The notes: generated from the letters alone by a model not told the origin. A DNA stretch of 64,000 nt from Vairimorpha necatrix (GCA_036630325.1 CP142732.1:62001-126000), one strand, 5' to 3'. Positions 13,021 to 58,741 are shown, counted from the stretch's first letter. Numbers and translations are program-made.

Positions 13021-13197
13021 TGTGGTATCCACCACTGAGGAAAGTATTTAAAATGTTTTTATTTTTGATTTCATTCCTTCTTTCCATTACTCCGTACCCC
13101 TCTCCGGATAAAATGATTAAATAAGTGTTGGGGGGAAACGGGACGAATTGGAGGGAAAGATTTTGGAATTATATTTTATGATATTTGGTATATCATA
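13021..13197 (+). repeat. Solo LTR (177 bp, TG..TA ends), hairpin/Gag-in-LTR type
   Basis: Perfect TSD GTAGT (13016-13020, 13198-13202); homolog of 2348-2525; encodes KILELYFMIFGIS. Confidence 0.75.
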
Positions 13198-13593
13198 GTA
13201 GTGTAGTTTATTTGATACAAAAATAGTTTTTAGTGTGTTTTAGTTGTTTTTTAAATTTAAAATATACGGAACTGTTATGTATCCATTGGACATGGCCATT
13301 TTTGTAATAGCTCTCCAAATAGTTTCTATAATCATAATATTTATTGATGGTTTTAATCTTTTTCTTAGATTCCATATTCATCGAAAACATACTTTCTTTT
13401 ATATTTTACTTTAATTTTATTATTTGTTGTACAAAACTAAACTACAAACATTGGCGTATTTGCGAATGTGGTAACAACCATACAACTTTCGTTTATTAAT
13501 TTAATTGACCATCTTGACAAGCCATATAAAACAATTAACATGTCTTTGAACATATGTAACAGTCGATGCTACTTTTGCATATGTATTTGTTGA

Positions 13594-26149: not shown

Positions 26150-27410
26150 TATAACTCGACAAGACCGCTTTACGACAAAATTGACATAAGGACGTACCAT
26201 GGAAATTTGATTCAAACAATGTTAGAGGTTTGATAAGCATTATAAACTCTTCTACTTAGCTGTTTAAAGGAAACAACCAGGCTTGATTCGAAGCAATTTA
26301 CAACTTTCTACAGGATAAAAATATTTTCTTTGGACAGGAAAGACGACTTCCTCATTGTAAATCTCATAGGAAGATCGGTCATTTAGCTACCAAGTGCGAT
26401 CGAATGTTAAGTTTTGATTACATGAAAAGACATACAGAGGTAATAGATGCATTCATCTCTTACAGTGTATTAAATGAAGGGTTTAAGAAGACAAAGAAAA
26501 TACGTGGACACTCGGTACAAGAGATCATGGAAAATGATACTGCGGAAATAATTGTAGGTACGAGAATTTCCACCAATATAATGTAACGCATATTAAGCCT
26601 GATATTCTTGTGTTTGACAAGAAGAAGAAAGAAGTTTAATATAATAAAGTTGGCATGGCCAAGAGGATTGACTTACTATAGTCGTGAATGAAAAATTAAG
26701 AAAATATAACCTTCTTGCAAATGAACTGGGACTAATACGTAAATCCCGGACAAAAATAGTTCCTTATGTAATGACATAAGATGGTGGTGACCAAATAATA
26801 CAGAAAGTACACCGAGAGTTATAATTTAATCATACCTTGAAGCATACATCAATTCTATTATGCTGAAGAAAACTCTAGAGTCCAGATCTTTGGAACGACG
26901 ATACGGATACAACCCAGAGGATGCAAGGTAGAAAGAAGTGGCTAGAGACGTAAGCGCACTAGCGATATGGCGACTGTTAAAGAGGCGGTGTGTGCAAAGA
27001 GAAATCAAGCTGAAAATTCGGAGTTGAAAAACATAAATAATTCCACAGAAACCATAGTCTGTGAAGATCCAAATCACACGAGCGATACAACGAAAGCGGA
27101 TTTAAACTTTTACAAATGGATGATAAAAAAAACTCAATAATTCTTTTTGTGTTTTCCCTCCAAATGAATTTTGTAGAATTAATTTCCTATAATAATTTCT
27201 TTTTCTTTTACGCAACGAAAATGCAGAGGAGTACACAAACAGCACAATCAATGCTGTATCCCCAGAGGATGGAAAATAATGCCCACATAGGCAATTAAAA
27301 TATATACAATTCAATTTTTAACGACTCTAGCACCCAGGAGAAGCATCATAGAATGCTATCTAAGAAATGACTACGCTCGGGCAAAGCCTCAAATTAGTAT
27401 TTGTTATTAT
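26150..27410 (+). mobile_element. 3' portion of an R4/Dong-like non-LTR retrotransposon, degenerate
   Basis: Zinc-finger remnant PHCK..HLATKCDRMLSFDYMKRHTEV; KPDILVFDKKKKE; KLRKYNLLANELG..IVPYVMT. Boundaries approximate. Confidence 0.8.
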
Positions 27411-30008: not shown

Positions 30009-31431
30009 ATGATGTATTTAATTCCAACGTCGATCATTATACAATTAATGCTATTAGTATTTATTCCTATAGAGGCAACTAAAGTTGATAAAATGAAATG
30101 TAAAACTATACTAGACAATAATTTATTCTTTAGAAAATAATATTGAAAGTGATACCTATAAATATAAAGAAATAGCAAAAATTTTATTCGCAGCTGTTTT
30201 GGAAAAAATCAAATTCCCTTACAAAAAACGTTATCTGTCAAGTTTGAATCTGAAGCTGGAATATGCAGTTGAACTGGAAGATATGAAGGTCAATAAATAC
30301 ATTGAAGGTCTAGAAAATTTGATCGATATTTCAAATTATGCGCCGAGTAAAGAAAGATTAGTTCTAAAATTGCATTTAGAAATTTCAAAGCATACTAAAC
30401 TCTTATTTCAAACCTTGTTATGTATAAATTATAAAACGGGAAAACTCGAACTTCCTAAAGTTAAAAATATTCTTGATAAACATGTGGAAATAATGTCTGA
30501 TGCAACGAATCCTTATTTTAAACAGATTTTTAGTAAAGATGCTCTGAAACGCATCATTGATGATATATACGATACCACTGGTTATGAGAGTAAATATACT
30601 ACCGAAATGAGAAAAGTGAATGATTCTATGAATGGTGATATTAATATTGCTATGGGCCAAATTACGCATAATATGAAAGATAATGTAAATAATGTACAAT
30701 TAATATATAACAATAGTTATAAAGAAGATATTAGCGATAAGGAAAACCACGTTATTGATGACAGTGAAGAAATGTATAATAATGCTGGTGAAGACATTAG
30801 TGATGAGGGAGAACCCAATAACGATGACAGAAAAGAAATTAATAATAAGCCCGATAAAGACATTAGTGACGGGAAAGAAACCGATTCTAATGACAGTGAA
30901 GAAATTGATGATGATTCTGAAGAAGATATTAGTGATGAAAAGTTTAAGGTGAGCACTCAAGAAAGTAGCAACAGTATGAAGGATAATAAGACTTTTATTG
31001 AGAATGAAAAATTTTTGATAAAGCAAGAAAATGAGAGTCCTAGCAGTGTAGAAAATAAAATTGACGTGCATCAGAATGTTAGTTTAAACGGGCATGACAA
31101 TAGTTATAATAAAGAACCTGATAATAATAGTAATGAAGAAGATATTAGTACTGAAAAGTTAAATATGAACGCTCCTGAAGGTAACAACAATATGGTGGAT
31201 AATACTAATTTTATCAATGAAGATCATATGGACAAACAAGAAGAGGAAGAAGAGAGAATTAGTCGTCTAGAAAAGCATTTAAACATGTTTCGAAAGGCTA
31301 GTTCGAATATACATAACGATGTCAATAATTCAGCCATAACGTTTGAAAGTAATTCAAGTTCTATGCTTATTTCAGGTATTGCTTCACTATTAGTAGCTCA
31401 TCAGTTAGGTAATAATTATCTTTTGAATTAA
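30009..31431 (+). pseudogene. Putative secreted/surface protein with acidic repeats; one frameshift at about 30115-30138; paralog of 53043-53855
   Basis: TACCCCAATG start with signal-peptide-like MMYLIPTSIIIQLMLLVFIPIEA in one frame; the 410-aa ORF is in another frame that is open from about 30115; hydrophobic C-terminal tail. Confidence 0.75.
30710..30940 (+). repeat. Intragenic 66-bp (22-aa) tandem repeat, about 4 units
   Basis: GAYATTAGYGAY (DISD) at 30727, 30793, 30859 and 30925; a related unit at 31141. Confidence 0.85.
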
Positions 31432-34400
31432 AAATAAATAAATGTTTATTTTTTTTATTTATATATATATATATATATATATGCATTTTTTCGTCTTCTA
31501 ATTAAGCAAAATTTATATTAGTTAAATCACATTATTTAGAAAAAAAACATTCTCATATCATTAATAAAATAAATAAGTATTGTGTTTGGATGTAATAAAA
31601 TAAACACTTCTTTTGCAAATGCCATTCATGTGTTACAAACGCATGTATTTCGTGTCAAATGCAACCAATTGATCTCTAGGAAAAATAAGAAAGCTTGTTT
31701 GACTCTAAGTTTATTTTGACTTTTTGCAAATTGTATAGTTTTCGAAGAGCATATACTTACAATACTAATAGACCTAGTTTATTTAATATAGCAATTTTTT
31801 TTATTACATTTTCCTCAAAATTATGCACTTTTTCTTTAGTATCAGCTTTGAGTTCTTCTGACGAGCTTTTAAATTGTTTCGAGTAGCATTTCAAATCAAT
31901 ATCAATTACATATCATCTGACACACTTAAGCTTTACAAAAAACCTTGAATGAACTTATATGTATTCTTGCCTTCATTTTAGATTCCAATAGATAGTCTTT
32001 ATCATGCGCTTAACTGTTATTTTGTTTAATTTTACCTGTAAAATGTGTGTATTTTACATAGAACAGATAAATAATACTATGAAAAGTATTTTAATACGGA
32101 AATTACATTAATTAAACTCAAAGTAGCAATTCAGAAGCTTCTTAGTTCATAGTTATTTGCTACATAGTCTAATAATCATCTACAAAGTCAATTCTCTGGC
32201 GATCTCAGTAAAAAAAATTTGATTTCTAGCTGTAATATGTGTGCACAATTTGTCTGTATGTTGTATCTTACAATCACAAAGGATGTTTTACGTAAAATGT
32301 CGTAGATAATTTACTGCATGTAAATTGTAGTGTTGTCGACATGTCAGAATTAATTAAATAATGTAATAATTAAACTTTAAAAAGAATTAATAACAATACA
32401 TATTGTTATGTTGGGACCTTATAGTGATCAAAAGGGTTATTACTCTAGAAAATAGATACTTTATTGTGTTAATTCACATGTCGAACAAATAGTTATAAGT
32501 TACAACTAAATAAATACCATTAACTTTATTTGTAAACATATTTACATGTTATTGTCGATATTTAATTGTTTATTAGTTTTCATCTCCTTTCCATCCATGT
32601 TGCTTGGGGGTAAAATGCAAAAGTTATAAATATTGTCTTTTTTATCATAATGTGGGTAAAAATTATGCAAATATATCACATCCCCCCTCAAGACGGCAAG
32701 TCTCATCCAATTTTCACATCTATCCCAATCATACTCTTCAGATCAAAATGTCTCTTCTTCACAAGCCTACCATTACTAAGTTTTACTTATAAGAATCTTT
32801 TCCACATTTTTCCCTGTATCCAAAAATATTGCTTTCTCATACACAAACTCTTGCCAAATTTTCTCGTTTGGCTAAACTTAACAAGTGACTGTCAAAAAAG
32901 TTTTCGATTTTTCCTTTTTAAAACCTATTGCAATATTCTATAGGGCTATTTTCAAGCATTACGTCTCCCGTATTATCTTCAGGCGCTTTTATTGGTGTAC
33001 ATTTTATTCCTGTATGATAGCTCTGATTATATATATCGATACTTTTATACACTTTACCTTCAAAAGTTTCCGGTTCGACTTTAAAATATTTTCACTCACA
33101 GTTCCTATAACACACTCTACTCCTTCATTACTTCTATGCGCTTCTATACTTACTTGTCGATGTATTATATCCAGATCTCTACACAAATTTCTGGATTCCA
33201 CGTTAATAAACTCTTTATCGTTATCTGTAATAATTTCTTCCGGCTTCTTCCTTAGCTCACATAATTTTTTTAAAAATCCAACAACATTATTACTTGACTT
33301 GTTTTTTACAACTACTCCCCATATTCTTCGTGTAAAATAATCGATAGCAACTAAAACATATTTCTTCTCATTTCTAAAGTCTATCAAATAAAATGCAACC
33401 TTCTCTAGATATCTCGACGTATTTTAAATTCTCAACCACCCATATTTATTCTGTTATATATCTGGCTTTTCTGACACTGTTTTAATGTCGTTTATTTCTT
33501 TCTTTACTCCTGGCCAATAGTATTCTTCTTTCATTGCAAAATAAACACTTGCCATACATCTTTGGCCTACTTTTTCGTGATATGCTTGGATTAAAGTCTT
33601 CTAATATTCTCCAGTGGTATTTCAACTTTACGTCCTGAATCAAATTTCCAATATTGCTTTCCATTCTCGGTTGAAACATGTGCCTTCATTTACCTTCTGT
33701 TTGCTTGATTGTTGACTCTTTATTTTCCATTTGTTTAATATCCTCTTCCATATTTATTCGATTCAACATATCTGCTACCCCCATCTCATCAGGTTTTTTA
33801 TACACAAAACTAAACTCATATTCCTGTATCTTCTCGATTACGCGATTTATTCTGTTATTGTTAAAAAACGGGTTGTTTCTTATCTCCACCAGTGCTTTTT
33901 GATCCGTTTCTATCTTGAATTTCCTACCTCTTAACTCGTATTTAAACTTATCAATGCCCCAATATATCGCAAGCATGTCCATTTTTGATATACAATATCT
34001 TACTTCTGTTAGTGTCAGCTTTTTAGATGCCCATTGTATAGCAACCCATTCTTCATTCTTATTCTTCTGAAGTAACACCATACCTAATTCATGTTGCTAG
34101 CATCTGTGCTCAGGATGAACTCTTATTATAGTCCGGCACTCTTAGTCTTCCCATAATTCGTTACTTACTTTTCATTTCAGTAAATTCCTCTTTCATCTCT
34201 TCCGTCCATTTCCACGAATTGCCATTTTCCTATAAACTATCCTAATTTTCAACTTCAATCTGGCATAATCTTTAAAAATGATCTACACTCTTCAATAATC
34301 CCAGAAACCCTCTCAATTCCGTCAAAGTTTTTGATTCTGAATACTCCAAGGCTTCATTTTTTTTTATTCGTCGGCCGTCATGTTTGTTCCTTTCAACGTC

Positions 34401-34662: not shown

Positions 34663-34966
34663 TGACGCAATCCAGAGGAGCTACCTCTGGACAAATATAG
34701 TTCTATTAAATTATACGTTTTATTTGATTGATTAAAGCCTCGTTGGGCATCCGTAATGGGATACTGGTCCCTGGCTCTGAGGCCCTTCCTTGGTCGTGGA
34801 TTCCAAGGGTACTGATCTTTGTCTTGTCTCATAATTTTTGTGGGGATCAGGGCAAAAAGGAAATAAATATTAGATTTTTGGAATAGACCGGTCGAATGGT
34901 CTATTTTCCAAAAAGGGAAAATTGATAAAATAAAAATAAATAATTTGTGGTATTTATAATACCACA
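34663..34966 (-). repeat. Solo LTR (304 bp), hairpin/Gag-in-LTR type, inserted in the RT of element E
   Basis: Perfect TSD AAATT (34658-34662, 34967-34971); removing it restores TAFEFNKKVYEGNSMVMG; starts TGTGGTATTATAAATACCACA and ends TGCGTCA. Confidence 0.9.
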
Positions 34967-36580
34967 AAATTCAAACGCCGTCTTATGTTTATCTTTTTCT
35001 TCGATTTCAAAATGGTAAAATGCTTTTTGCAAACAAAAACAGTAAATATTATCGACCCCTGCGTAGCTCTAATTATTTCTCTCATATTCGTTAGCTCATA
35101 CGGGTCTTTCTCGACTAAACCATTCAATCCTATAAAGTTACTAACAACTCTTACTTCACCACTTGGTTTAAGTATCGCTCTTATTGTATTTATATTCCGA
35201 TGACAATCTTTTTATAATCTTTTAATTTTCTTAATCATTAATATATTCTTCTGTCTGTTTGATTAAAGCCTGTGGGATCGTCTGTCCCTTTGAGACTATT
35301 TTCTTACTCTCTGGAGTATCTATTTTACACTTCTCTAATGTACAATAATCTAAACCCTCATCTCCTTGCTTAAAAACTTCTATAAATTTCGCTTTGGGGT
35401 TTCCCGTAAATTCTCTCTTAAGTAATCTTCTTTTCGTCTCTTTATTGCACGCATATATTCTTTCTATCCTTCTATCACTATTACTACATTCCTTTAACTT
35501 AACTCTTTTTGTCTTTCCACTTGGTTTATATCCTAATTATCTTCACTGCTACTACAACTTTGACTTTCGTCTAACTCTGAATGCGATTTCAAATTTTTAT
35601 CATTTTCTGATTATTGTTTCTTTTTACATAGCAGTTCCTAGCGAAATTTCCCACAATTATAACAATTCCTATTCCTTCTTATTTCTTGTACTGTATTCCT
35701 CAAAACTAAATCTTTCTTTTGCATTTCTTTTCTCACAGGTTCTCTAACATTCTCAGTTATAGCCTCCATAAATTCTCTCATATTTTCTTCTTCTTTTTTG
35801 TGTCTTTCTTCTCTACACATTTCCTCCTATAATTTCTCAGTTATTTTGTCAATATTTGTCCTCTTTACTGATTCTTTCTACAATAAAATTTTTTATTTCT
35901 TCGTTTACTTCCATTAATACCCTTGCGGCTGAAGATGCCCAAACACCCCCCCCCCCTCAGAGGGTGTTCACTTTATTTTTTCGAACCCCAAAATTGAAGT
36001 GCAAAATAAAGGAGGAGCAAAAAAGAGACAAAAATTACTATGCACTTATGACATTAAAAACAAGAAATAAACATACATTTATGTACACAATTATATTTTA
36101 ATTTAAGTTTGTATATTCATATAAATTGATGAGCATTTTTTACCCTTCTGATTTATTGGAATTGGGGACCAAAACGCTCCCCTCTGAAGGTGTTCACTTT
36201 ATTATTTTGAACCCCCAAAACGAAGTGCAAAATAAAGGAGAAGCAATTATTAGCACTTAAATTACTTGCATCTTTAAACAGTAAAAATACCAAATAAATA
36301 TATATTTGTATACGAAATTTAATTTAAAAAAAGAATATAACCACAAAACTATATAATTCTAAATAACTTAACATATTTTAAATTAAATTTTTTGATTTAA
36401 CAATCTGTATGGATCGTTGAACATTTATTTAAATTTTCTTATATAAGTAATATTTATAATTTTATTTGTTGGTTTATTATGTGGTGTTTCCACCAGGGAG
36501 ATGGCCATAATGTAAATAGCATTCAAGAATGCTTCTCCCTGCATCTAAATTAGTTTTAGTAAAATGGTTTTTATTAATGC

Positions 36581-39500
36581 TGTTGGGATAAAAACATGGG
36601 TTTAATTATTATAAAATATTTAAAGAAACGACATGTCAAATATGTCAAAACAATGACACTATATATTTGACATGTGTAGCACTTCCTACACTACCCCTCC
36701 TTTAAAAGCTTAACATGATTTCGGCTTGCTGTAACAGTCTTCCCACTATCTAATAAAACTTTATATGAATGAAATTTTTTATCTACTACCACTCCCTTTT
36801 CTTCCCATTTTGGTTCGAGTTTTCCTCTAAACGGTAAAATTAAATAATACCAAACTCTATCTCCCACCTTTATGGCCTCTTTATCAACAGAATTAGCTTT
36901 TTTACCCGTGTCATATTCTTGTCTGTAAACTTCCAAGTTCTTAATCGCCTGCTTCTGAAACTCTTTCTTATCCTTTGTTAGATGCATTCCTTCTTGTATA
37001 TCTATCTTATTTGGAACTATTCCTGCTAAGAGTTCTATTGGTGCACACCCTATAGCCCTATGATATGATTGCATATAGGCTCTGACTACTTTAGGGACAC
37101 ATTTCGCCCAATCAAATTTCCCAAATTCTGTAACCTTCCTTAATTTTATGGCTATTGTCCTGTTAAACCTCTCAACAAGCCCCGTGGTTGTAGGTTTATA
37201 AGGGGAACCATATTTCCAGATGAATTTTTTGGATTTCGCATATTCCTCACAGATATTATTTTTGAATTCTTTACCATTGTCAGATAAAATTGCCTTTGGA
37301 ATACCATACTTCCTGACTATATGTTTATCTACCAGATAAATAACCGTATTCATATCTTTTGTATAAATCGGCACCACCTCTGCAATTTTCGAAAAGTGGT
37401 CAATCATTGTCAATAAAAATTTATATCCTTGCTCGCTTTCTCTCAAAGGCCCTACTATGTCTACTTCCCAAATTTCTCCTATCGTCTTTGTTACTAATGG
37501 TATAATATCTCTAAATTTTTTCTGAGGTTTTTCTTTTTGACAAATTTCACAATTATCTACATAATTTTCTATGTCTCTACTCATATTCTTCCAAGTAAAT
37601 TTTCGACCAATATTATATTGCATATTTTGTTTTGATCCATGCCCTAATAAATCATGGTAAAACTTTAATAGCACTATTGTCCTTTCTTTTTTAACTATTT
37701 TCCTTTGTATTGAACTTATTTCTGAAACTATCTCCTCCTGTTTTTTAAAATCTCTGCTTAGGTGATCTGTATGGTTTGATGGTCCTGTAATATATTCAAT
37801 GTCGAAATCATATTCTTGTAGCAGTAATGACCATCTAGCCAACCTAGCTTTTACATTCCTAGACTTAAACAAATATTTTAAAGCCTGATGATCCGTTTTT
37901 AGCGTAAATTTCCCCAATAATAAATATTCCCTGAAGTTTTGAATCGATTTTATAACTGCTAGCAATTCTTGCTCAGTAGCAGAATAGTTTTTTTCTGTCT
38001 TGGAGTGTAAAGAGCTGTAATAAGAAATAATCTTTTCTTTTCCTCCGACCATCTGAGCCAATGTTGCCCCACTTCCCTCATTCGATGCATCCGTAGTCAA
38101 TATAAATTTATCCTTTAAATTTGGAATTGTCAATAAAGCTGTTCTCTTCATAGCCTGTTTTACCTCTTCGATTGCCTTGCAGTATTTTGCATCATTCTCT
38201 GCATTTTTCCAAAAAATATCAGCGTCCTCATTCTTGAGTCTTATTATATCGAATAGTGGGCTAACCACTTTATGGCTGTTTTTAATAAATTTAGAGCAAT
38301 AATTATACAGCCCCAACAAAGATTGTAATTTCTTCTTACTTTTAGGAATTGGTAACTGTTGAATGCTCCTAACTCTTTCTTCGTCCACACTTATTCCCTC
38401 TTTTGATATTACATGACCTAAAATTTTTAATTCGGTCTTATTAAATTCGCATTTCTCCTTATTAAGTTTAAGCCCTACCGACTTGAGCTTTTCTAATACC
38501 ATTTGAACATCTCTCTTATGATCTTCTTCAGTTTTACTATAGATTAGTATATCATCCATGTATACTACAACAAACTTAAACAAAAATTCCCTCAATATAT
38601 CATTCATCACCCGCTGAAATGTAGCTGGGCCATTAACAAGTCCAAATGGCATTTTGGTAAATTCAAATAAGCCTTCTCTACAGGCAAAGGCTGTCTTCTC
38701 AATATCACAAGGCGCCATATCTATTTGGTGATAGCCCGATTCAGCATCTAATTTAGTAAAGTATGTTACGCCCTCTAAAGCGTTAATGAACTCTTCTACT
38801 CTAGGCATTGGATACGCATCTCTAATAGTCGCATCATTTAATCTTCGATAAACCAAACATAATCTATGGTCTCCATTCTTTTTAGGGACTATAATTATCG
38901 GGCTTCTCCATGCGCTTACACTTGGTCTAACTATTCCACGTTTTAGATACTCTTTCACTATTTGGGACGCAATATCCTCTTTTGCTCCCCCCAATTTGTA
39001 TAACTGAGATAGTATTGGGTTATCATGCTTTGTGATAATTTTATGATATCCTATGGCTTTTCCCTTTGCCAAAAGTCCAGATTCAATTTCCATTTTGTTA
39101 CTTCCAAATTTTAAATTTATCTTGTACATGTCGAGTAACCCCTGTCCTATAATGCAAGGAATTGTGATATCCCTAGTAATAATAAATTTATCTTCAAATA
39201 TCATTCCCTCAATTTTTATTTTAACTACTGTTTCTCCAATGATCCTTATTTTCGATCCATTGGCTGCCCTAAGCTGTTGTTTAGAACGATTAACAACGGT
39301 TTTATTTGGCAAAATCTCTGGTCTAATTAGATTTATATCAGCACCAGTATCGATGAGCGCTTTAAATTTAACTTCCGAATTATTTAGTGACGCTTCTTTG
39401 AGCGTAGTCCTATCATCCTTGACCTTTGCAACAGAGTAATTATAAATAAATTCCTTTACATCCATCTTCTTATTTTCTCCTTCTTCTTCTTGGGGTTTCT

Positions 39501-40281
39501 TGACTTCGCTAATATCTCTACGGTAACTATTAAATCTACACCGTGCTACTGTATGGCCTTTCTTTCCGCATATAAAACATCTCTTTTCTTTGTTCCTTTT
39601 AGAAGTCCAAATCTTTCTATCGTGGTCCTTGCAGCTAATCGCTTTTACATCCACAAAATCTCCACGCGAAATTTCTTTATGACGTGCATCATCCACTTCC
39701 AAAACATTCCTTATGGCTTTATATAAGTACTCCCAGGATAATGAGTCTTTGTTATTTATTAAGATCGAGTTTGCTATATTGTTCGGAATTCCTTTTAGTA
39801 CAAAAGCAATTAATACACCTTCCGGAACATTCGCCCTGCGCGCCAATCCCGCCATCTTATCTAGATAGTTGATTAGCGATCTACTTTGATATTGAAGGGC
39901 GGAAAGTTTATCTATACTCACTTTCATCGCCATAGAACCCACAAATCTTTCTTGAAACAAAAATTTCAGCCTTTCAAGTGAAAGACCAATTGGCTGCGCT
40001 ATCAACCAATCCCTCGCTTCATCTTTTAACGACATTCTGAAAAGGAGTACAAGTTCACTCTCACTGTACTCCATCAGCCTCCCCACATCCTGCAAGTCCT
40101 CCAAGAACTGCTGTGGATCATCTTTCTCTTCATTTCTGAAAATGAGAAAGTTCCTGACGTTGTCGCCAAATTGTTGGGATAAAAACATGGGTTTAATTAT
40201 TATAAAATATTTAAAGAAACGACATGTCAAATATGTCAAAACAATGACACCATATATTTGACATGTGTAGCACTTCCTACA
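36581..40281 (-). mobile_element. Ty3/Gypsy element A, 3701 bp, near-intact
   Basis: 110-bp LTRs 36581-36690 and 40172-40281 differing at one base; TSD AATGC (36576-36580, 40282-40286); PBS TGGCGACAACGTCAGG (tRNA-Ser-like); PPT AAGGAGGGGTAG. Confidence 0.97.
36691..40188 (-). CDS. Gag-Pol polyprotein of element A (1165 aa from its own ATG)
   Basis: CCCATG start inside the 5' LTR; CFICGKKGHTVARC; LIDTGA; YMDD; TDAS; HHCC; DDE integrase; stop codon in the PPT. The 63 extra N-terminal residues in the ORF track come from LTR sequence. Confidence 0.92.
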   Translation of the reverse strand: MFLSQQFGDNVRNFLIFRNEEKDDPQQFLEDLQDVGRLMEYSESELVLLFRMSLKDEARDWLIAQPIGLSLERLKFLFQERFVGSMAMKVSIDKLSALQYQSRSLINYLDKMAGLARRANVPEGVLIAFVLKGIPNNIANSILINNKDSLSWEYLYKAIRNVLEVDDARHKEISRGDFVDVKAISCKDHDRKIWTSKRNKEKRCFICGKKGHTVARCRFNSYRRDISEVKKPQEEEGENKKMDVKEFIYNYSVAKVKDDRTTLKEASLNNSEVKFKALIDTGADINLIRPEILPNKTVVNRSKQQLRAANGSKIRIIGETVVKIKIEGMIFEDKFIITRDITIPCIIGQGLLDMYKINLKFGSNKMEIESGLLAKGKAIGYHKIITKHDNPILSQLYKLGGAKEDIASQIVKEYLKRGIVRPSVSAWRSPIIIVPKKNGDHRLCLVYRRLNDATIRDAYPMPRVEEFINALEGVTYFTKLDAESGYHQIDMAPCDIEKTAFACREGLFEFTKMPFGLVNGPATFQRVMNDILREFLFKFVVVYMDDILIYSKTEEDHKRDVQMVLEKLKSVGLKLNKEKCEFNKTELKILGHVISKEGISVDEERVRSIQQLPIPKSKKKLQSLLGLYNYCSKFIKNSHKVVSPLFDIIRLKNEDADIFWKNAENDAKYCKAIEEVKQAMKRTALLTIPNLKDKFILTTDASNEGSGATLAQMVGGKEKIISYYSSLHSKTEKNYSATEQELLAVIKSIQNFREYLLLGKFTLKTDHQALKYLFKSRNVKARLARWSLLLQEYDFDIEYITGPSNHTDHLSRDFKKQEEIVSEISSIQRKIVKKERTIVLLKFYHDLLGHGSKQNMQYNIGRKFTWKNMSRDIENYVDNCEICQKEKPQKKFRDIIPLVTKTIGEIWEVDIVGPLRESEQGYKFLLTMIDHFSKIAEVVPIYTKDMNTVIYLVDKHIVRKYGIPKAILSDNGKEFKNNICEEYAKSKKFIWKYGSPYKPTTTGLVERFNRTIAIKLRKVTEFGKFDWAKCVPKVVRAYMQSYHRAIGCAPIELLAGIVPNKIDIQEGMHLTKDKKEFQKQAIKNLEVYRQEYDTGKKANSVDKEAIKVGDRVWYYLILPFRGKLEPKWEEKGVVVDKKFHSYKVLLDSGKTVTASRNHVKLLKEG

Positions 40282-40477
40282 AATGCTATTCCCATGTGGG
40301 TAATTAGCTGTCCTCTTGTGAGGGGGTAGGTATCTTTGTGTCCTCCCGTAGTTATTCATATTCTCTTGATTGTTCATCTTTTTTTGGTGGGGTAAAATAA
40401 AGAGAAAATATTTATAGTAAAATATTTTCTAGAATATTCGTTTGGTGGGAATATAAAATAAAATAATAATGTGGTAA

Positions 40478-43400
40478 TTAATACCACATACTACCTCCTC
40501 CAGCAGACTTCACGTTCTTTATGTGTGTCCACCCATTTTCTTCGTCCAGCTGTATCCAAAATCCCTTAGGTCCTACTTTCAATATTTTCCTTGGATTTAA
40601 TTCATACTTTGGATCAAACTTGTTTGAGTTAAAATTACGTTTATATACCTTTTCTCCTATAGAGTACTTCCTACTAAATGTCTTATGATGCAAATTGGGT
40701 TCTACTTCTTCTGTTTGGTTGAATGGATCATAGAAGTTCTTCTTGGAGACCACTGATATTGGAGACGTTCCTATCGTCCTGTTATAGTTTATATTTTTAA
40801 CATCCTCTGCTCTTTTAACTACATTTAATATATGTTTAAACTTGTTTAAGGCCATTATAAAAGCTATTGTACTATTTAGCCTTTCAGAGACACCATTACT
40901 ACTGGGCGTGTACTCTGGTACAAGTATTTGTTTTATGTTATTCTCTCTACAGTAGTTATTTAATGCGGTGTTATCAAACTGCTTTCCGATGTCGGAAATA
41001 ACGTATTTAGGTGTAATATATTCTTCTTTCCATTTATTTAAGCATTGTATTACATCTGATGCTTTGATCCTCTCAAAGAAATATAACTTAGTAAACCTTG
41101 AATATATATCAGTTATAGATAATATATGCCCTGTCTCTTTCACACAATCATTTTTATAATCAGAAACGTTAAATGGACCAAAAATGTCCATTGAAATTCT
41201 CCCAAATTTTTGTTGTGCGACGATTTTATTTTCTATATTATGCTTATATCTGATCTTCTTTAGTCTGTAACACATTCCACAACTTTTAGTTACATCTTTT
41301 ATTAATTTAACCATGTTTCTTATATTAACATAATTTTTTAAATTGTTGTACATGGTGGTAATTCCTCTATGTCCGGATAATTTATGTATCTGTTCTAAAA
41401 AATACCGCATCTTATTTTGCTTTATAATTACTCTTTTATTTTTATCAACCTTCATCTTTCCGGTATGGGTTTTTACAGAGCATTTATTAATTAAATTATC
41501 ATACTCATTTTTAATGTTTGAGTCTTCGATGTATAAGCACCGAGATAAGCTATCGGCTATTACGTTTTTATTTCCGTCTATATGAACTATTATATGATTA
41601 AATTCATTCATTAACAATTTCCATCGTTCCAACCTTGATGTTTTCTTTTGATTATTATGTATACAATTTCTACTATCGGAGTGTATCTCCGTATAACAAC
41701 CTTGAATATTGTTTTTAAAATGTATTTAAGCTAGGACTATTGATAAGTATTCCTTTTCAACAATGGTGTAATTTAGTTCAGACCCATTGAGTTTCTTTGA
41801 ATAGTATCCTATCACTCTATCATTTTGTTTCAAAACTGCACCAATCCCCAAATCTGAGGCATAACATTCCAATATAAATTTTTTGGTATAGTCCGGGAAA
41901 GACAATCTAGCTCCATTTGTTATATCTTTTATAACGTCATTGATAATTATTTTTAACTTATCGTTTAAGCGAATCTTTTTGTTATCTAACTTTAACAAAT
42001 TACTAATCTCATGAATTCTTGTTGATAAATTTGGTACGAACTTCCTGTGCCAATTTATAACTCCCATTAACTTCTGTACATCTTTTCTGGTAGATATCTC
42101 TTTTGTAAATATTTTATTTTCTAAACTTTTAAGATTTGGATAAATCCCATTTTTATCTATTCTATAACCTAAAACATTAATTTCTTCTTGAAAAAACTTG
42201 CATTTATCAAAATTTATCTTTACACTTTTATCGTGTAGCTTGTCTAATACACTTCCTAAAATCTTAAAGTGTTCTTCTTTTGACTTAGTATAAATAACTA
42301 TATCATCTATGTACACAAAACAATTTGGTGTGTCACTTAATATCTCCGAAATATATCGCTGAAATATTTTAGGTCCTGGTTTTATTCCAAACGGAATTCT
42401 TTTATATTGATACTGCCGTCCCAATAACATAAATGACGTATATTTTTTGCTTTCATTACTTATCTGAATTTGGTTAAAACCGTTCTGAAGATCGAGTTGA
42501 CTGAAATAATTGTTTTCACCCATTATTCTTAAACAGTCGTCTATTTTAGGTAATATCCACGGATCATCTTCAATATGTTCATTAATTTTTTTATAGTCTA
42601 CTACTAATCTAAGATCGTTATTTTTTTTCTTAAGGAAAAAGGCTGGGCTGGAAAAGGGAGAGTTACTTAATTCGATTATATCCTCTCTAAGTAATCTAAA
42701 AATCTCGGCCTTTCCTTGTTCGTAATATTTTTTTGGTACACAATATCCTTGTGACTGAATTACTTTCATAGAATTTTTTATGGTAAATGTAACAGGTACT
42801 GACTGCATACTTTTAAAGTTAGAATTCTTTAGCATATAATCCTTAATTTTTTTATTTAAAAGCTCTTTCGCAACCTGAGTCACGAAGCAAATTTTTTCAC
42901 TTAAGCGTTCATCTAATATCTCATCAGTTGTTTTATCACAACCTAGTAACTTGATCACCTTATTTTCAATAGTTAACGTTCTTTTACCATAATTGATTAT
43001 GCAATTATTGCTTTCAAAGAATTTGAGACCCAGAATCAGCTTTACTGGTAAATTTTTTAAAACATAAAATTCAACAATATACTCATCTTTGTCAATGGTT
43101 ATGGTTCCCCTTACTAGCTTTGATGTTACTTCTACCTCACCATTCCCAAATGAAACCTGAATTGGTTTAGTCTCTTCCTGTTTCAGGTTTAAGTTTAACA
43201 CCTGCTTTTCTGTGATGAAATTCTCATCTGATCCATTATCTAGCGTAAACACTTCTAGACCACCAGCAATAGTGGCTTCAAGTTCAAGTTTCCTCGATCC
43301 GGTGATTTTAGTTTCATTAATAACAAAAGATTTTCTTTCGTTCTCTACATTCTTCTTTTTTATTTCTTTCGATCTTAAGAAACAATCTCTTGTGTTATGA

Positions 43401-44335
43401 GATTTGATCTGGTGTATAGAGCACCATTTGTTATTCTTTATCAGGGTATTTGGCACTTCCTGATTATTATGATAATTTCTCATCTTGTCATTGGGGCTTA
43501 CGCTCATGTTGGCTAGCGTTCCCTGCAAAATAATGTTTTCTTCTAGTCCTTTTAGATATCTAACTACTTCAACGGTTGGGCGGTTGTCTAATCTCTGTTT
43601 AAAAATTTCAATCGCTGTAAAATTTCCTAGTCCTCTATTAAAGGCTTCATTGAGTCTATTTTCAGAGTCTTTCTTATTTAAGCCATTCATAATACCATAT
43701 AATTCAATAATACTCGACACTTCATTATAATAGTCGACTATATGCTTATATTGAACCTGTTTTATGGTTTCCAACTTTAATAAAACTAACCTGGCTTCGC
43801 TTTTAGGATAAATTACTTCAATTAACTCTTCTCTCAGTTTCTTATAGCTATTTCTTGTAAAGCTATCCTCAATTCTATCATCGTCAATTAAAGAATGGTA
43901 AATTATACCCATCTGTTCATCTGTCCACTCATTGGCATTAGCCAATGCCTCAAACTTCTCCATATGCTTTAAATCACAGTCTTTTTTGATGTCTTTAATT
44001 TTATATATTTTTTCTTGGATTCTAATAGAAGTTCCAATCATTTTCTTCTCAAAGGTCACACTTTCCTTTGGAACAATCACTTCACTTAATAGTACTTGTC
44101 TTTTTTTTATAGTAAGTGAATCTCTAACACTTAATGAATTCATTGTGGTGTTTCCACCAGGGAGATGGCCATAATGTAAATAGCATTCAAGAATGCTTCT
44201 CCCTGCACCTAAATTAGTTTTAGTAAAATGGTTTTTATTAATGCTATTCCCATGTGGGTAATTAGCTGTCCTCTTGTGAGGGGGTAGGTATCTTTGTGTC
44301 CTCCCGTAGTTATTCATATTCTCTTGATTGTTCAT
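40478..44335 (-). pseudogene. gag-pol of element B with one in-frame TAA (41726-41728)
   Basis: ORFs 41726-44335 and 40478-41632 are in the same frame, separated by one stop; CSIHQIKSHNTRDC knuckle; LDNGS protease; YIDD; RNase H CYAS (catalytic Asp apparently replaced); integrase HHCC and DDE. Confidence 0.9.
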
Positions 44336-45599
44336 CTTTTTTTGGTGGGGTAAAATAAAGAGAAAATATTTATAGTAAAATATTTTCTAGAATATTCGTT
44401 TGGAAGGAATATAAAATAAAATAATAATGTGGTAATTAATACCACATATTATAAAAGTAGATTTTTGAAGAAAATCTCTTTTTATAATAACCCAAAAATT
44501 GAAAAAAATTGAAAAAATAAGAAGGGCAAAAAAGATACAACACTTTAAATGATTATTATAACTACATTAAAAATTAATTTTTGTATACAAGCATATATTT
44601 ATTTGTTATTTTTAATGCCATAAGTGCTTAGTAATTTTTGTCTCTTCTTTGCTCCTCCTTTATTTTGCACTTCAATTTTGGGGTTCGAAAAAATAAAGTG
44701 AACACCCTCTGAGGGGGGGGGTTTCGGATCCTTCCTCCCCCTCTGCTTCCACAAACTGGATTCTACTTCCGCCATCTCCACCCTGTAACAAATTCTTCTA
44801 GCTTTCTTTAATAGCTTTTTGGCCTCTAGACCACAGTCCACACTTGTAAACTGACGATTTGGTATCGCCCCCATGTCTTTATTTATCATAATAGGGGATA
44901 GAAATTAGACAAATATATCACAAATATTAAGAAATGTCAAATATGTTTTAACCCAAGATCTCCTAAGACATTATTAATTTTGTAGAATATGTTTTTAATG
45001 CAATGGAAATAAACTGAATTAAGTAGAAGATTTTAAAAAATAATGATTAAGTTATAAATCAAAGTATTCATTATATAAGAAGCCTTCCTTATGTTAAACT
45101 ATATGTATGTTGCATGATTTGATTCTTTATTCTAGTTAATTGTTTTTTTCATGATTAAATATTGATAAATAAACATTCAAAAAAATTAAAGGGCGTTAAT
45201 TCTATCAATAGGTGATCTAATACTTTTATAAATACAATATAAAAAGTAAACAATTGAACTTAATTTGTTTTGATCTACCATAAAAAATAAAATGAATAGA
45301 TATTCAAACTAAAATATGCGTTTCTACAATTTTTAGCAATGTAGCGTACTAAATAGATGTATCATATGTCATAAAGTATTCTTATTTTATAAATTAATTA
45401 TTCATATGGACATTTTTCTAAAAAAGCCATTTGTATTTGCAAAATTATTCAACTCTGATCATTTATTTATATGAATGATTTCTCCTTGTAGTTATTCTAC
45501 TTCATATAAACCGAAAATATTTTATTGCTGAAAAAATATTACGTAACAATCTATTACAATTGCCAATTAAATATAGTTTCTTCGTACTGATTATGTAGT

Positions 45600-48394: not shown

Positions 48395-48743
48395 TGTGGT
48401 ATAATGGATTATACCACATTTTTTATAATTAACCAATGGAAACTAAAACGCTGATCCTTCGCCGGAACGATATATGATGGGCAACTATTATTGATTAGTT
48501 ATATTACATTTGCTTCTATTGGTTACTCTAACTATAAATAAAGAAACTTCATCATCGACATGGTACATCACTCGAACACTAACAAACACTCTTCCTTCTA
48601 TAATTCAGATAAGCCAAACACTTTTTATAACAATAAACAATTTTTTCCTTTAAACTACCTAAATTCCGGGGTTCACAGCACTCCAAACCGTAGCATCATT
48701 GAATGCTTCCTTGCCACAGGCAAGCTCCCCGGTATACACGCCA
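48395..48743 (+). repeat. Solo LTR (349 bp), hairpin/Gag-in-LTR type
   Basis: Perfect TSD ATAAT (48390-48394, 48744-48748); starts TGTGGTATAATGGATTATACCACA and ends CACGCCA; encodes RSIIECFLATGKLPG, like RSILECYLHYGHLPG in element B. Confidence 0.88.
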
Positions 48744-53042: not shown

Positions 53043-53855
53043 ATGTATTTTATAATAGAAATTATCATTTTAAATATACGATTGTCAATATCTGGAACTA
53101 TAATCGAAGAAAAAAGGAATAATTTAGAAAAATGTATGGAAATACAAAAAAAATATAATCCCGAAGCAAGCAACGTTTATAAATATAATTTTATTTCTCA
53201 TGATATTTCAAGTGTCATACTTAATTCTGTTTTGGAAAAAATGCAATTCCCATTAGAAATACTCGAGTCGACAGAGAATTCTAATGAGACAAAATACGTA
53301 ATAGTCAAAAAAGATCTTACTTTAGGAATATATTATTATGGATTAATTAAAGGAATCGACCTTTCAACAATTTATGATATGGAACGCAAATATATACTTG
53401 TGAACAAATTAATGAAGGATATTATATCACAAACTATACTATTATATCAAACTTTGTTGTGTATTCGTTTCAACGCAGGTTTCCTTGACCTTAGAAAAAC
53501 AAAACTTATTATTGATAAATATGTTGATGTTAAAGTGGATACGAAAAAAATTGTCATTGAACATGTTTTTATAGAAGGGGGTCTTAAATATATTATTGAT
53601 GATATATATAAAAACATTTCCTTTCGAGAAATTAACACTAGTATTATGGAAGAAAAACATAAAGGCGAGGAACAAGAGAAAATTAATAAGTTTGTAAATG
53701 AAAGTGTCAGCGGCCTTAAAGATGTTATAAATAAACACCAACAAGCTAGTCCAAACTTGGATGAGAATTTGATGAATTCATGCATGACAATGAATTATAA
53801 TTCAGTGACAGCTAGTATGCTAAGTTTTATCCCATTGTTTGCAATTCGTCAGTGA
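53043..53855 (+). CDS. Hypothetical protein, 270 aa, probable signal peptide and hydrophobic C-terminal tail; paralog of 30009-31431
   Basis: Intact ORF; TACCCCGCAAGATG start; shared blocks VLEK(M/I)(Q/K)FP, LL(Y/F)QTLLCI, LK(Y/R)IIDDIY. Confidence 0.85.
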   Translation: MYFIIEIIILNIRLSISGTIIEEKRNNLEKCMEIQKKYNPEASNVYKYNFISHDISSVILNSVLEKMQFPLEILESTENSNETKYVIVKKDLTLGIYYYGLIKGIDLSTIYDMERKYILVNKLMKDIISQTILLYQTLLCIRFNAGFLDLRKTKLIIDKYVDVKVDTKKIVIEHVFIEGGLKYIIDDIYKNISFREINTSIMEEKHKGEEQEKINKFVNESVSGLKDVINKHQQASPNLDENLMNSCMTMNYNSVTASMLSFIPLFAIRQ

Positions 53856-54690: not shown

Positions 54691-55232
54691 TATTTGCATG
54701 ACAAGCGATAAAAGTAAAGAAACAAACAATAATGTTAGGGAAGTCACTTAAGCCTTATAACAAACGGATTTGATATATCCGGTAACAAAAAAACATTACA
54801 ACTTTGTCTTGAGACGCAAGTGTTCAAAATTATTGACGTCTTCTTTTTTAGCAAATTTCGTAACTTTGTTGGTTGTTAGCTTCTATGAGGAATTATAATA
54901 ATGGTTAAAGCTAAGATCATTACCGTAATAAATTTTTATATTTTATTAATTCTGAAAAAGTATTATACGCTCAATTAAATATAAATTTCATTATATGGTC
55001 GCATGGAACATGTTGTTTACTACTTATCACTATTACAGTTTAGTACACCTTTATTTTTGCTAAAAAGGACGTTTTGATGTGTGCACAGAAATAAGGAAAT
55101 TTTTTAATAAATATAGAGACCCGCTTTTTTGTTGTGACATAAATCAATAATCATATGCTTGATTTTGAAGTATACTATCTAGAATAAAGAATCATCTCAT
55201 AACTCATGAAAAAAGGTTTTTTCATTAGTTGA

Positions 55233-58200
55233 TGTTATATATTCTTATATTTTTGATCCCCAATTATGATAAATAAATACATGGGGGCGATACCGAATCG
55301 TGAGTTAACAAGTGTTGGCTGTGGTCAAGAGGCCAGAAGGTTATAGAAGAGTTTAAGAGGATTGTTTATGGATTAGTATTGTCTGATTATGATTTTGAGA
55401 AGAATGTAAAGAAGGAGATTTTTGGTCTTGGAACTGATGAGTTAAAAGAATTTATGGTTAAGAATATTAAGGTTGGAGATCATTGGAAAGTTATGGAAAC
55501 CAAATTAGAGGAATTGGTTAAAGTACAGGAGGAAAAGGATATGAGATTACGGATGATTGAGGAGGTCATAAAGATGGTGGCAGAGGAGATTAGAAATATT
55601 AGTAGAGAGGAAAGAATATTTGAGAAGAGAAGAACAATGAGATGTTATAATTGTTCAAGAATGGGACATAAGAGTCACATGTGTTATTATAGATATAGAA
55701 ATGTTAAGAATAAAGACGAATGTGAGAGTATTAAAGAAGAAGGTAGCAGTAGCTGTGGTGAAAGGACTTATAGGAACACATGGGATGCTAAAAGACAAAA
55801 GAAACAAGAATGGAAGACAAGAAATAAAAGATGTTATGATGAGGTAGAAAAGAACGGTCTAACATTAGAAGACATGAGAAAGAGGTTTAGGAACGTTATA
55901 ACAACGAAGAAGAGAAAATAAGATATTGTAAAATTGAAAAATGCAGAATCAGAACTGAAGAAGGTAAGAAAGTTGTAAGGAAAGGTCAGCAGGTGCCACA
56001 AGCGCATAAAGAAGAGCTGAGAAAATATATTCAGAGGTTAGAGACAAGGAATGTCATAAGAAGATCGACGTCGGAATGGAGAAATCCGATTAAAGCTTTA
56101 ATTAAGCCAGATGGAAGTATAAGACTGGTTAGCAATCTCATGGCATTAAATGATTTAGTGGAGAAAGACCCTTATGAATTAGTGAACATTAGGGATATCA
56201 TAAGGAACACGCAAGGATCGAAGTTTTTCAGTGTTATAGGCCTTAAAGAGGCTTTTTATGGAATCGAAATAGAAGAGCAAGACAAGCATAAGACTGCATT
56301 TGAGTATGATAAGATAGTATATGAATGGAATAGTATGGTCATGGGGTTTAAAAACTCGCCTCAGATCATGCAGAGAATTATGAATAAAATTTTTGAAAAA
56401 CATTTGGGTGGTAAAATAGAAGTATACATGGATGATATAGTGATTCATGCGAAGACTAGAAAAGAACATGATAACTTATTTGTAGAAGCGATGAAATTGT
56501 TAGAACGGAATAATATGCGGATAAATTCAAGGAAAATTCAGTATTGCCAAAAGGAAGTCAAGTTATTGGGGGTTACATAAACGGAGATGATATGATGCCG
56601 TCTGAAATCAAGAAAAATTAAGCACTAGAGTTTCCAACGCCGCAGAATGTGTCTGACATAAGAAGATTTTTTTGACTGAGTGGATGGTTTCGAGGATTTA
56701 TTAAGAATTATGCGGAGAAGACATTATATATGACTGAAAGTTTGAAAGGTAAAAGTAAAGAATTGAATTGGACTGATGACTTAAATAAAGAGTTCGAAAA
56801 TATCAAGGAAACGTTAAGAAGTATGAGTAAGTTGAAAATTGTAAACTATGACAAGGAATTTTTATTAAGAACTGACGCGAGCAATATAGGAATGGGCGCA
56901 ATACTCATGCAGAAGAATGATAAAGAAGAGTGGGTGCCAGTACAATGGGCATCGAAGAAATTCACCCCGACGGAAACTAAATATGGTATAAGTGAAAAGG
57001 AAATGTATGCCATATATTGGGGAATAAAGAAATTTGAGTATGAGTTAAGAGGACGAAAATTTAAAGTAGAAACGGATCACAAAGCATTGGCGGAAATAAG
57101 AAGAAAGCCGTGTTTTAATAATAATAGAATTAATCGATGGATTGAAAGATCCAAGAATTTGACTTTGAAATAGATTACAGGAAACCAGAACATATGGTCG
57201 TGGCGGATGCTTTGAGTAGGATACACGAGGAGGTTGATCCAAGAAAAGAAATGATAAAAAAAAGAAGTGAGCGTAAAATTGAAGGTAAATGGTTGAAGCA
57301 CGTCGAGACGATAGACGGTAAAGAATAGTGGAATTTTGATTCGGGGAGGAAAGCATTGATTCCTAAAATAAAAGAAAGAGATGAGCTTATGAGACGTTAT
57401 CATGAAGAGCATGGACACAGAGGACTAGGAAGCATGTATTATGCCATGAAGTTTGATTATTATTGGCCAGGAATAAAAGAAGATATAGTGAAAATGATAA
57501 AAAGATGCGAGGAGTGTCAAATTTACAATAGGAAAAAGATTGGAGGATGTGATTTTGTTGCTACAAGCAGGTATTTAGAAAAAGTAGCGTTAGATTTAAT
57601 TGATTTTAGAGATAAGGGCAAATATGTATTAGTTGCGATAGATTACCATACGAGGATAGCGTGGGGATGTGTATTATACGATAAGAAGAGATCCTCTGTG
57701 GCCCAGTTTATTGAGAACTTATGTAGAAATGGCAGGAGGCCGAAGGAAATAATAACGGATAATGGAAAGGAATTAGATAATGTTGACTTTAAGGATTTGT
57801 GTAGAAAATTGGATATTACCCATAATAAGGTGAGTGTCGAGTCTCATAGAAGCAATGGTAGAGTTGAAAGAGTTATAGGAACGCTTAGAGATCTAATATT
57901 GAAAATGAGTAAAGAGACGGCGAGTTTTGAAGACATAGTGATGGAAAGCTTTAAAATTTATAATAATAGTTACCATGAAGGTATAAGAAGTACTCCCAAT
58001 GAAGCGGTAAAAGACAATACGGGAAAAGTGATGATATTAAATGGACCAGAAGGAGACTACAGTAAAAGATTTGTTAGAAGATATAGAGAGCGGTTTATTG
58101 AAGGACAACGAGTAAGGATAGCTAAGAAAGAAAACATCAAAGGATGTAATAAATATGAAAAGGGAAGGTTTTTAGACGAAGGTATTATAATGGCGATATG

Positions 58201-58372
58201 CCCTGGGGACTCGTATGTTGTGAAGCTATCTAATGGGCGATATGTTAAAAAGAGACATTATGACTTGAAAAATCTGCTTGGGGTTAATGGTGATGTATAA
58301 GACTAACCGTCTTGGAGGGGGGATGTTATATATTCTTATATTTTTGATCCCCAATTATGATAAATAAATACA
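55233..58372 (+). mobile_element. Ty3/Gypsy element F, 3140 bp, disrupted gag-pol
   Basis: Identical 49-bp LTRs 55233-55281 and 58324-58372; perfect TSD GTTGA; PBS TGGGGGCGATACCG (tRNA-Pro-like); PPT GGAGGGGGGA. Confidence 0.96.
55266..58300 (+). pseudogene. gag-pol of element F with several stops and frameshifts
   Basis: Starts MINKYMGAIPNR inside the LTR; CYNCSRMGHKSHMC; YMDD; TDAS; HHCC and DDE integrase; no protease motif seen. Confidence 0.88.
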
Positions 58373-58486: not shown

Positions 58487-58741
58487 TGGCGTGCTGCACA
58501 GGGATGCGGCTTGTTCTAAAGTAATATTCTAAAGAACTAAATGTTTGCCCGTCTGTCCCTGGCAGGCTTTAAATTGTTTATTGTAATTATTTTTATTTAG
58601 TTGTTTCTCCTTGGATTCCATTTCCTTTTTTGTTGTGGGGTTTAAAATAAAAAATTTTAAAAATAAGAAGGAGGGAAAATAATTAAAATTGTAAAATTCA
58701 TCCTATAAGAAATAGAGATGTTATGTGGGCATAATACCACA
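58487..58741 (-). repeat. Solo LTR (255 bp), hairpin/Gag-in-LTR type
   Basis: Perfect TSD AATAT (58482-58486, 58742-58746); starts TGTGGTATTATGCCCACA and ends CACGCCA; CCCCACAACAAAAAAGGAAATG start; frameshifted peptide SSLEYYFRTSRIPVQHA. Confidence 0.85.

Follow-up and report, generated by a model that had tools for sequence, protein, structure and literature searches.

A Ty3/gypsy family of Vairimorpha necatrix whose long terminal repeats almost certainly encode the start of Gag and are followed by a palindrome in the primer position

One retrotransposon of Vairimorpha necatrix, here called element B, raises the question of whether its long terminal repeats (LTRs) encode the N terminus of Gag and, if so, whether this is a peculiarity of one copy or the layout of a family, and what becomes of the poly(A) signal and priming site that would then lie in coding sequence. 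The window analyzed is a stretch of 64,000 nucleotides (positions 62001-126000 of CP142732.1, assembly GCA_036630325.1) from an AT-rich genome of 15 Mb in 12 contigs. Its G+C content is 29%, the named relatives of its retroelement proteins are microsporidian, and it is mostly mobile DNA with few recognizable host genes, among them a polyprenyl synthetase gene (20877-21764, minus strand; Pfam). Counting from the first letter of the window, element B consists of the following parts.

44447-44451 and 36475-36479: 5-bp target-site duplication, TAATA, enclosing B plus the nested element C
44446-44144, minus strand: 5' LTR, 303 nt, TG...CA, a direct repeat of the split 3' LTR at 98-99% identity
44428..44446, minus strand: hairpin opening U3 of the 5' LTR, perfect 7-bp stem from base 1
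44347..44374, minus strand: host-type gene-start context by sequence (putative promoter), with a TATA-like stretch, a T-rich run, and CCCC at -15 to -12 from the ATG
44350-44347, minus strand: the CCCC upstream of the Gag ATG
44144..44335, minus strand: Gag N terminus within the LTR, 64 codons, a variable Asn/Lys/Arg-rich stretch and then the conserved motif
44234..44239, minus strand: AATAAA in the coding part of the LTR, candidate poly(A) signal
44156..44194, minus strand: conserved Gag motif ILECYLHYGHLP (alignment; AlphaFold2 model)
44133..44144, minus strand: perfect 12-bp palindrome AATGAATTCATT at the primer-site position, including the last base of the LTR and lying within the Gag frame
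40478..44335, minus strand: single gag-pol frame with capsid, CHHC-type knuckle, protease, reverse transcriptase (RT), RNase H, and integrase (Pfam, translation, fold searches)
40489..40501, minus strand: polypurine tract plus two bases ahead of the 3' LTR, in the pol frame
40282..40488, minus strand: first part of the 3' LTR, with the second copy of the Gag ATG at 40377
36480..36580, minus strand: second part of the 3' LTR, beyond the nested element (GCATT, 5-bp duplication at the insertion)
36581..40281, minus strand: nested element C, a Ty3/gypsy element of another RT lineage, with 110-nt LTRs and a TGG-type primer site

The Gag ATG at 44335 lies 111 nt into the 303-nt LTR, behind a CCCC and ahead of 64 LTR codons, all as the preliminary description of this locus had it. 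The Pfam domains of B follow the Ty3/gypsy order (protease, RT, RNase H, integrase), with the integrase not before the RT, and one in-frame stop interrupts gag-pol at 41728-41726. At the other end, pol crosses the polypurine tract and enters the 3' LTR, which starts at 40488, ending after 11 nt with the stop at 40480-40478. The nested element C has its own Gag ATG 17 nt ahead of the end of its LTR, and the frame opened by the ATG in the 3' LTR of B continues through the C LTR and the whole C gag-pol (1228 codons; 36691-40377, minus strand), a chimera that is probably a chance product of the nested insertion. A dispersed repeat of 100-210 nt occurs at 35948-36157, 44512-44721, 36171-36325, 13624-13775, and 14684-14835; one copy lies 65 nt upstream of B, and two copies form long inverted arms around 13624-14835.

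With the B Gag as query, we located 147 places in the genome and fetched 100 of them, picked for longer open frames, a choice that biases the sample toward intact copies. LTR ends were set for 89 elements by the repeat, the end dinucleotides (TA ends allowed), and the target-site duplication alone; the 80 with a perfect 5-bp target-site duplication were kept, and nine were dropped. The first in-frame Gag ATG lies within the LTR in 71 of these 80 elements, with 25-66 LTR codons that occupy 32-64% of the LTR, and the layout of B thus recurs across the family; the remaining nine elements have kept the motif but are frameshifted or broken. (In copy L105, an earlier ATG would give 92 codons, and its second Met cluster was used in later counts.) Clustering at 70% identity gives 20 LTR clusters, of which 18 contain an intact copy. 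We conclude that the LTR almost certainly encodes the start of Gag and that an LTR-internal Gag start is very likely standard in a widespread Ty3/gypsy clade of microsporidia.

A polypurine tract precedes the 3' LTR in the family elements. The run of pol into that LTR, which the preliminary description had taken together with the absence of a trailer, is real in B but is not the rule: of the 70 elements whose last frame spans 150 codons or more, only 8, from a few subfamilies, show it, whereas in 62 the pol stop lies 2-69 nt before the 3' LTR (within 24 nt in 61). The absence of a trailer, on the other hand, is general. Internally deleted derivatives of 2.0-3.4 kb (L092-L096, L099, L139, L146, L152-L157, L162-L171, L175-L188) have near-identical LTRs and one frame of 470-860 codons open to the polypurine tract, which, as judged from sequence, suggests recent movement and selection for translation. 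Among LTRs with perfect target-site duplications, TA stands for TG at the start, or for CA at the end, in L163, L164, L169, and the window copies at 2348 and 13021.

Apart from those of B, LTRs of this kind lie at ten places in the window.

933..1185, minus strand: 5' LTR belonging to a decayed member of the family; ATG, motif, and palindrome present
2348..2525, minus strand: solo LTR with target-site duplication and motif, same family as 13021-13197
4613..4917, minus strand: solo LTR, L123 subfamily, with motif
11745..12003, plus strand: family LTR, L149 subfamily, 94%; absent from the preliminary description
13021..13197, plus strand: solo LTR with motif, frame broken
13278..13568, minus strand: family LTR, L160 subfamily, 77%; absent from the preliminary description
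27153..27364, plus strand: decayed family LTR with motif; absent from the preliminary description
34663..34966, minus strand: solo LTR, L127 subfamily, 98%, with motif
48395..48743, plus strand: solo LTR with ATG and motif
58487..58741, minus strand: solo LTR, ATG and motif not in one frame

The pattern [ILV]E-x-[YF]-[LF], previously said to sit near the end of nine LTR copies, is indeed found there in 9/9, and these nine represent about six independent families. Because the pattern occurs only about once per 3.5 kb of strand (36 occurrences in the six frames of the window), its position near LTR ends is not due to chance. The list of nine was incomplete, as the LTRs at 11745-12003, 13278-13568, and 27153-27364 show, and the in-frame link does not extend to all of it: two copies, those at 13021 and 58487, have an upstream ATG that reads in a different frame from the motif. 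The family of 2348 and 13021 is represented here by solo LTRs, and continuation of its LTR frame into Gag is putative.

Across 24 aligned Gags, the N terminus comprises a variable Asn/Lys/Arg-rich stretch followed by the conserved motif, in which Glu is nearly invariant. AlphaFold2 models a helix at residues 48-55 of the B Gag (pLDDT of ~70) with disordered stretches on either side. In fold searches, which barely test the residues before 90, capsid matches begin only at about residue 91-107, and the helix is thus an extension in front of the capsid. The top VIA-align rows are the capsids of PEG10, MOAP1, Copia, and Arc (Z of 8.9-9.2; rmsd of 2.2-6.0 over 83-157 residues); Foldseek E values for the Gag capsid are above 0.001, and Retrotrans_gag is matched in 9/24 Gags at E values up to 0.1. 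We regard the peptide encoded by the LTR as genuinely belonging to Gag, with a basic stretch that varies and, ahead of the capsid, a modeled amphipathic helix that is conserved, and think that it most likely serves as an assembly or localization segment. Neither Pfam nor a sequence search of solved structures assigned the LTR-encoded motif to a family, a protein atlas search gave no match of at least 0.9, and a word-based protein search, a weak search, returned no longer protein relatives. The nucleocapsid knuckle (Gag residues 305-318; 43382-43423, minus strand) is C-x2-H-x4-H-x4-C, not CCHC, and is conserved in at least 90% of the 24 aligned Gags.

A Gag profile search returned 859 relatives, of which 150 were listed and used, the named ones coming from Nosema granulosis, Vairimorpha apis, Dictyocoela muelleri, and Hepatospora eriocheir. 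Fifty-eight of the 150 listed were testable outside Gags (<60% identity, a Met start, and at least 35 residues before the capsid); a profile of the LTR-encoded residues alone reached at least 5 bits in 23 of these 58, against 1 of 580 shuffles, so the motif recurs, at the protein level, in distant relatives. The other 35 scored below 5 bits for the motif. On one outside contig (L271; 31% identity to the query in the best segment), the whole layout is present on DNA: the end of integrase is followed by a polypurine tract and by an LTR that opens with TG, has its ATG after 95 nt, contains 35 codons, and closes with CA, after which comes a 12-bp palindrome. Since this contig carries a single LTR, we infer its LTR ends; AATAAA is absent from its LTR-coded part. 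Among 66 metagenome loci, only L271 combines a strong Gag match with upstream DNA, and two loci with weaker Gag matches (L272 and L273) contain no palindrome of at least 10 bp in their first 900 bases. A likeness of the motif to the helix before the zinc finger of some gypsy integrases found no support: the motif profile reached 8 bits nowhere in the 66 loci, a weak test in that the scan missed L271 as well. One sequencing run, searched as contigs, yielded only short pieces of related LTRs.

As for monophyly, a quick, midpoint-rooted RT tree with 91 rows, which comprises only elements of this genome and unnamed relatives, places the family on one side of a branch with an SH-aLRT of 98. That side holds the representatives of the family (17/17) together with L270 and seven outside relatives, L270 being the RT just outside the window, beyond its start and downstream of a decayed Gag at 558-1064; the other holds 39 further RTs of the genome, element C among them.

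That the LTR codons are coding is argued by their frame, their substitutions, and their start context. In 18 subfamily representatives, intact by choice, the Gag frame is open over the LTR stretch in 18/18, compared with 0/36 alternative frames (joint base-shuffle probability of ~1e-26). From 49 minimum-spanning-tree pairs, pN/pS of the LTR codons is 0.52 (p = 2e-7), with values of 0.38 for the last 20 codons and 0.63 for the variable start; selection is weaker than on the downstream Gag (0.21) and is specific to the frame, the other LTR frames giving 1.26 and 0.77 (the latter the +2 frame; p = 0.04, a mild signal). Within clusters, the LTR coding part varies by multiples of three and U3 does not, in part a consequence of picking intact copies, and a gap-length test on nucleotide alignments gave no signal (multiples of three in 7/33 LTR-codon gaps and 5/25 downstream-ORF gaps). 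CCC or GGG occurs within 30 nt before the LTR ATG in 15/18 representatives versus 50/277 internal ATGs (p = 2e-8), a context that matches the gene-start motifs of Nosema ceranae (PMC2685015) and of Encephalitozoon cuniculi, in which 5' UTRs are shorter than 7 nt (PMC2803860). It is very improbable, then, that the open frame is incidental, with Gag starting just after the LTR and the motif acting as a nucleotide signal for integrase or RT. Such a start is suggested by the in-frame ATG that forms the first codon past the LTR in B and its close relatives, by a Met between LTR end and capsid start in 9/24 aligned Gags, and by synonymous sites that are more constrained in the LTR than downstream (pS of 0.082 versus 0.143). 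However, the other 15/24 Gags have no in-frame Met there, so the post-LTR ATG (44143 in B) cannot be the general start; in B that ATG belongs to the palindrome, and most subfamilies have TTG in its place. Nor would an incidental frame be expected to show frame-specific selection or a motif kept as amino acids across LTR clusters that are not alignable as DNA.

The AATAAA reported from the coding part of the B LTR (44239-44234) is likewise general in the family. It is present in the LTR-coded part of 18/18 representatives, against 5.1 expected from codon shuffles, and in 70/71 intact LTR-coded stretches, at 10.7 per kb versus 3.3 per kb inside gag-pol; Asn-Lys is spelled AATAAA in 23/28 cases in the LTR-coded part versus 93/186 inside gag-pol (p = 0.002). 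The hexamer is a general LTR feature (PMC3601003), and, being common inside gag-pol, it does not locate the poly(A) site. The preliminary description held that polyadenylation in the 5' LTR must be suppressed or give a short Gag peptide, but obligatory suppression is not needed: gag-pol is not depleted of AATAAA (163 observed, 173 expected), L271 lacks the hexamer in its LTR-coded part, and recognition of AATAAA is described as weak in E. cuniculi (PMC2803860), so the 5' copy could be read through without a special device. Deliberate use of the 5' AATAAA, yielding a short polyadenylated RNA and a regulatory short Gag peptide that would account for the conservation of the helix, is improbable. 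It would fit the enrichment of AATAAA in the LTR-coded part, the numerous solo LTRs with ATG and motif, and the restriction of Ty1 movement by a Ty1 Gag fragment (PMC4551931), yet in every representative the last AATAAA is followed by another 43-112 nt of LTR and is mostly upstream of the motif, and an RNA cut ~20 nt past it would usually contain neither the helix nor a stop codon. Many solo and nonautonomous LTRs are, moreover, frameshifted.

The presumed priming site, placed in coding sequence by the preliminary description, does lie within gag, but it is a palindrome and not a tRNA site. A perfect palindrome of at least 12 bp is centered +5, +7, or +8 nt past the 5' LTR in 80/80 elements and follows the 3' LTR in 0/80 (background, 16/54,470 positions). 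There are nine different 12-bp cores with symmetric differences in the arms and center (GAATTC, GAGCTC, GATATC, AAATTT), and in two clusters the palindrome is read in another codon phase; conservation of amino acids therefore does not account for it. The LTR is not followed by TGG, and matches there to 50 distinct tRNA 3' ends are at most 2 nt, whereas the control element at 55231 showed a 14-nt match to tRNA-Pro in the same comparison. A Tf1-type complement, judged against the predicted transcript start, was not found either: the longest in the LTR is 0-7 nt among the 18 representatives, with none within 30 nt of the ATG. A primer from the element's own sense RNA pairs with the primer site only if the site is palindromic, and the self-complementary center points to pairing between two RNA molecules. 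That two packaged RNAs prime each other through the palindrome is a reading to which we give an even chance. Alternatively, and quite possibly, though with less than even probability, the LTR is coding but the palindrome is only a dimerization or packaging signal, comparable to the retroviral DIS and the PAL sites of Ty1, and priming is by a tRNA fragment, a fold-back hairpin, or a protein. Palindromes dimerize RNA in retroviruses and probably in Ty1 (PMC3592414, PMC4974528), the palindrome region is also predicted to fold as an intramolecular hairpin taking in U5 (fold spanning 30 nt past the LTR), and the tRNA set searched, with 34 anticodons, is incomplete, since the TGG site of element C found no partner. 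Against this, the palindrome sits exactly in the primer slot in 80/80 elements; without a TGG past the LTR, no mature tRNA 3' end can pair, whichever tRNA is missing; and matches to internal tRNA sequence reach 5-8 nt at best and are not the same from one subfamily to the next. The center also stays self-complementary, which a hairpin loop does not need, and the RNA dimer is predicted to be 7-17 kcal/mol more stable than two hairpins.

With mutual priming through the palindrome, the replication cycle might run as follows. U3 would imitate a host gene start, and transcription would begin a few bases before the Gag ATG; with the RNA starting there, R, the poly(A) signal, U5, and the priming site would be overprinted on the first 25-66 Gag codons, a layout of R and U5 over Gag coding sequence that we hold to be highly probable. 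The preliminary description had attributed this layout to very short microsporidian 5' UTRs, and the coding LTR, the host-type ATG context, and 5' UTRs of <7 nt (PMC2803860) agree with that cause; the suppression of 5' polyadenylation that went with it is not needed. The genomic RNA would end past the AATAAA of the 3' LTR, while the 5' copy would mostly be read through, the signal being weak, as for many AATAAA in gag-pol. The LTR boundary would be set by the palindrome, not by a tRNA site: two packaged RNAs may pair through it, one may be cut at its 3' edge, and the new end may prime minus-strand DNA on the other. The end made by such a cut would fall on the LTR boundary or close to it, comparable to what RNase H achieves in Tf1 (PMC7175516); the variable offset of the palindrome from the LTR end (+5, +7, +8) is not explained by a single cleavage rule. 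More broadly, and with somewhat less than even confidence, we suggest that a microsporidia-wide Ty3/gypsy clade swapped its tRNA primer for a gag-internal palindrome through which its RNAs cross-prime and that, as the primer site defines the LTR end, 25-66 codons and the pre-capsid helix became part of the repeat. If true, this would also account for the shrinkage of the inverted repeat formed by the LTR ends, which are complementary over only 1-3 bp in 19/20 clusters, and each solo LTR would be a portable promoter-ATG-peptide cassette able to start chimeric frames such as the 1228-codon frame from B into C. A hairpin that opens with base 1 and has a stem of 5 bp or more is found in the LTRs of 20/20 clusters versus 26/417 internal control sites.

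In Ty1 of Saccharomyces cerevisiae, a Ty1/copia element, about 13 Gag codons lie inside the LTR. Ty1 resembles the present family in its short leader (a 53-nt 5' UTR; PMC3592414) and in a primer site inside the GAG frame (PMC4974528), which together place its Gag start in the LTR, and a Gag start in the LTR is thus not new in kind. Ty1 nevertheless belongs to another superfamily, has its integrase before the RT, and uses a tRNA-iMet primer, whereas the family lacks a tRNA site and has 25-66 LTR codons, with a conserved helix on which selection was measured. What is new here is the extent of LTR coding, the conserved helix under selection, and their pairing with a palindromic primer slot. The Nbr elements of Nosema bombycis are microsporidian single-polyprotein Ty3/gypsy elements. 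Groups of this type (Parisot et al. 2014, PMC4202319) share with the family one gag-pol frame, the PR-RT-RH-IN order, and the host range, and the main text describing the three groups contains no Gag start in the LTR and no primer site (PBS). In the limited literature covered, neither a coding LTR nor a palindromic primer site is described for microsporidian elements.

The palindromic primer slot is otherwise known from fungal GalEa copia elements, whose Conserved Hairpin Site (Donnart et al. 2017, PMC5445492) is a short palindrome directly past the LTR, with no tRNA site and a mechanism left unexplained. There, too, the palindrome sometimes takes in the last A of the LTR and shows symmetric substitutions, but GalEa elements are copia elements with a 10-bp palindrome and a second, complementary 9-bp copy 12-41 bp downstream, and the section describing the site reports no coding LTR (PMC5445492). 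The closest working model is Tf1/sushi, a Ty3/gypsy group with a single frame and tRNA-independent priming, in which the RNA of Tf1 and Tf2 acts as its own primer once RNase H has cleaved an RNA duplex (PMC7175516). In Tf1, the first 11 bases pair with the primer site, whereas the 18 representatives have no such complement near their predicted start. The Pfam matches listed for the B integrase include no chromodomain.

These elements would exemplify adaptation of a retroelement to a host with almost leaderless messages, the protein-coding sequence having to carry the promoter, the poly(A) signal, the repeat needed for strand transfer, the integrase end, and the priming site as well. They will be misread by annotation that places the Gag start past the LTR or demands a tRNA site. 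Because nine palindrome variants occur naturally in the family, and many of its copies are young, with identical LTRs, the mechanism of a palindromic primer site, raised for GalEa in 2017, becomes testable.

Short-LTR gypsy lineages of the same genome (5109-8448, 36581-40281, 55231-58372) resemble the family in having the ATG at or inside the LTR end, with 0-6 LTR codons, and one has both CCCC and AATAAA within a 51-nt LTR. They differ in their TGG-type primer sites, in far fewer LTR codons, and in the lack of a visible conserved helix. That three other gypsy lineages in the window also start Gag at or near the LTR end supports short leaders as the cause. The elements at 5109-8448 (minus strand) and 55231-58372 (plus strand) are decayed, with LTRs of 57 and 51 nt, and repeats of 49-55 nt resembling tiny LTRs lie at 4456-4504, 14861-14915, 15554-15608, 32634-32681, and 44874-44922. 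Long frames at 8785-10992, 58791-61095, 30283-31431, and 53043-53855 have no convincing Pfam match and resemble two paralogous host gene families, and fragments of a piggyBac-like DDE_Tnp_1_7 transposase (Pfam) lie at 18577-19410 on the plus strand.
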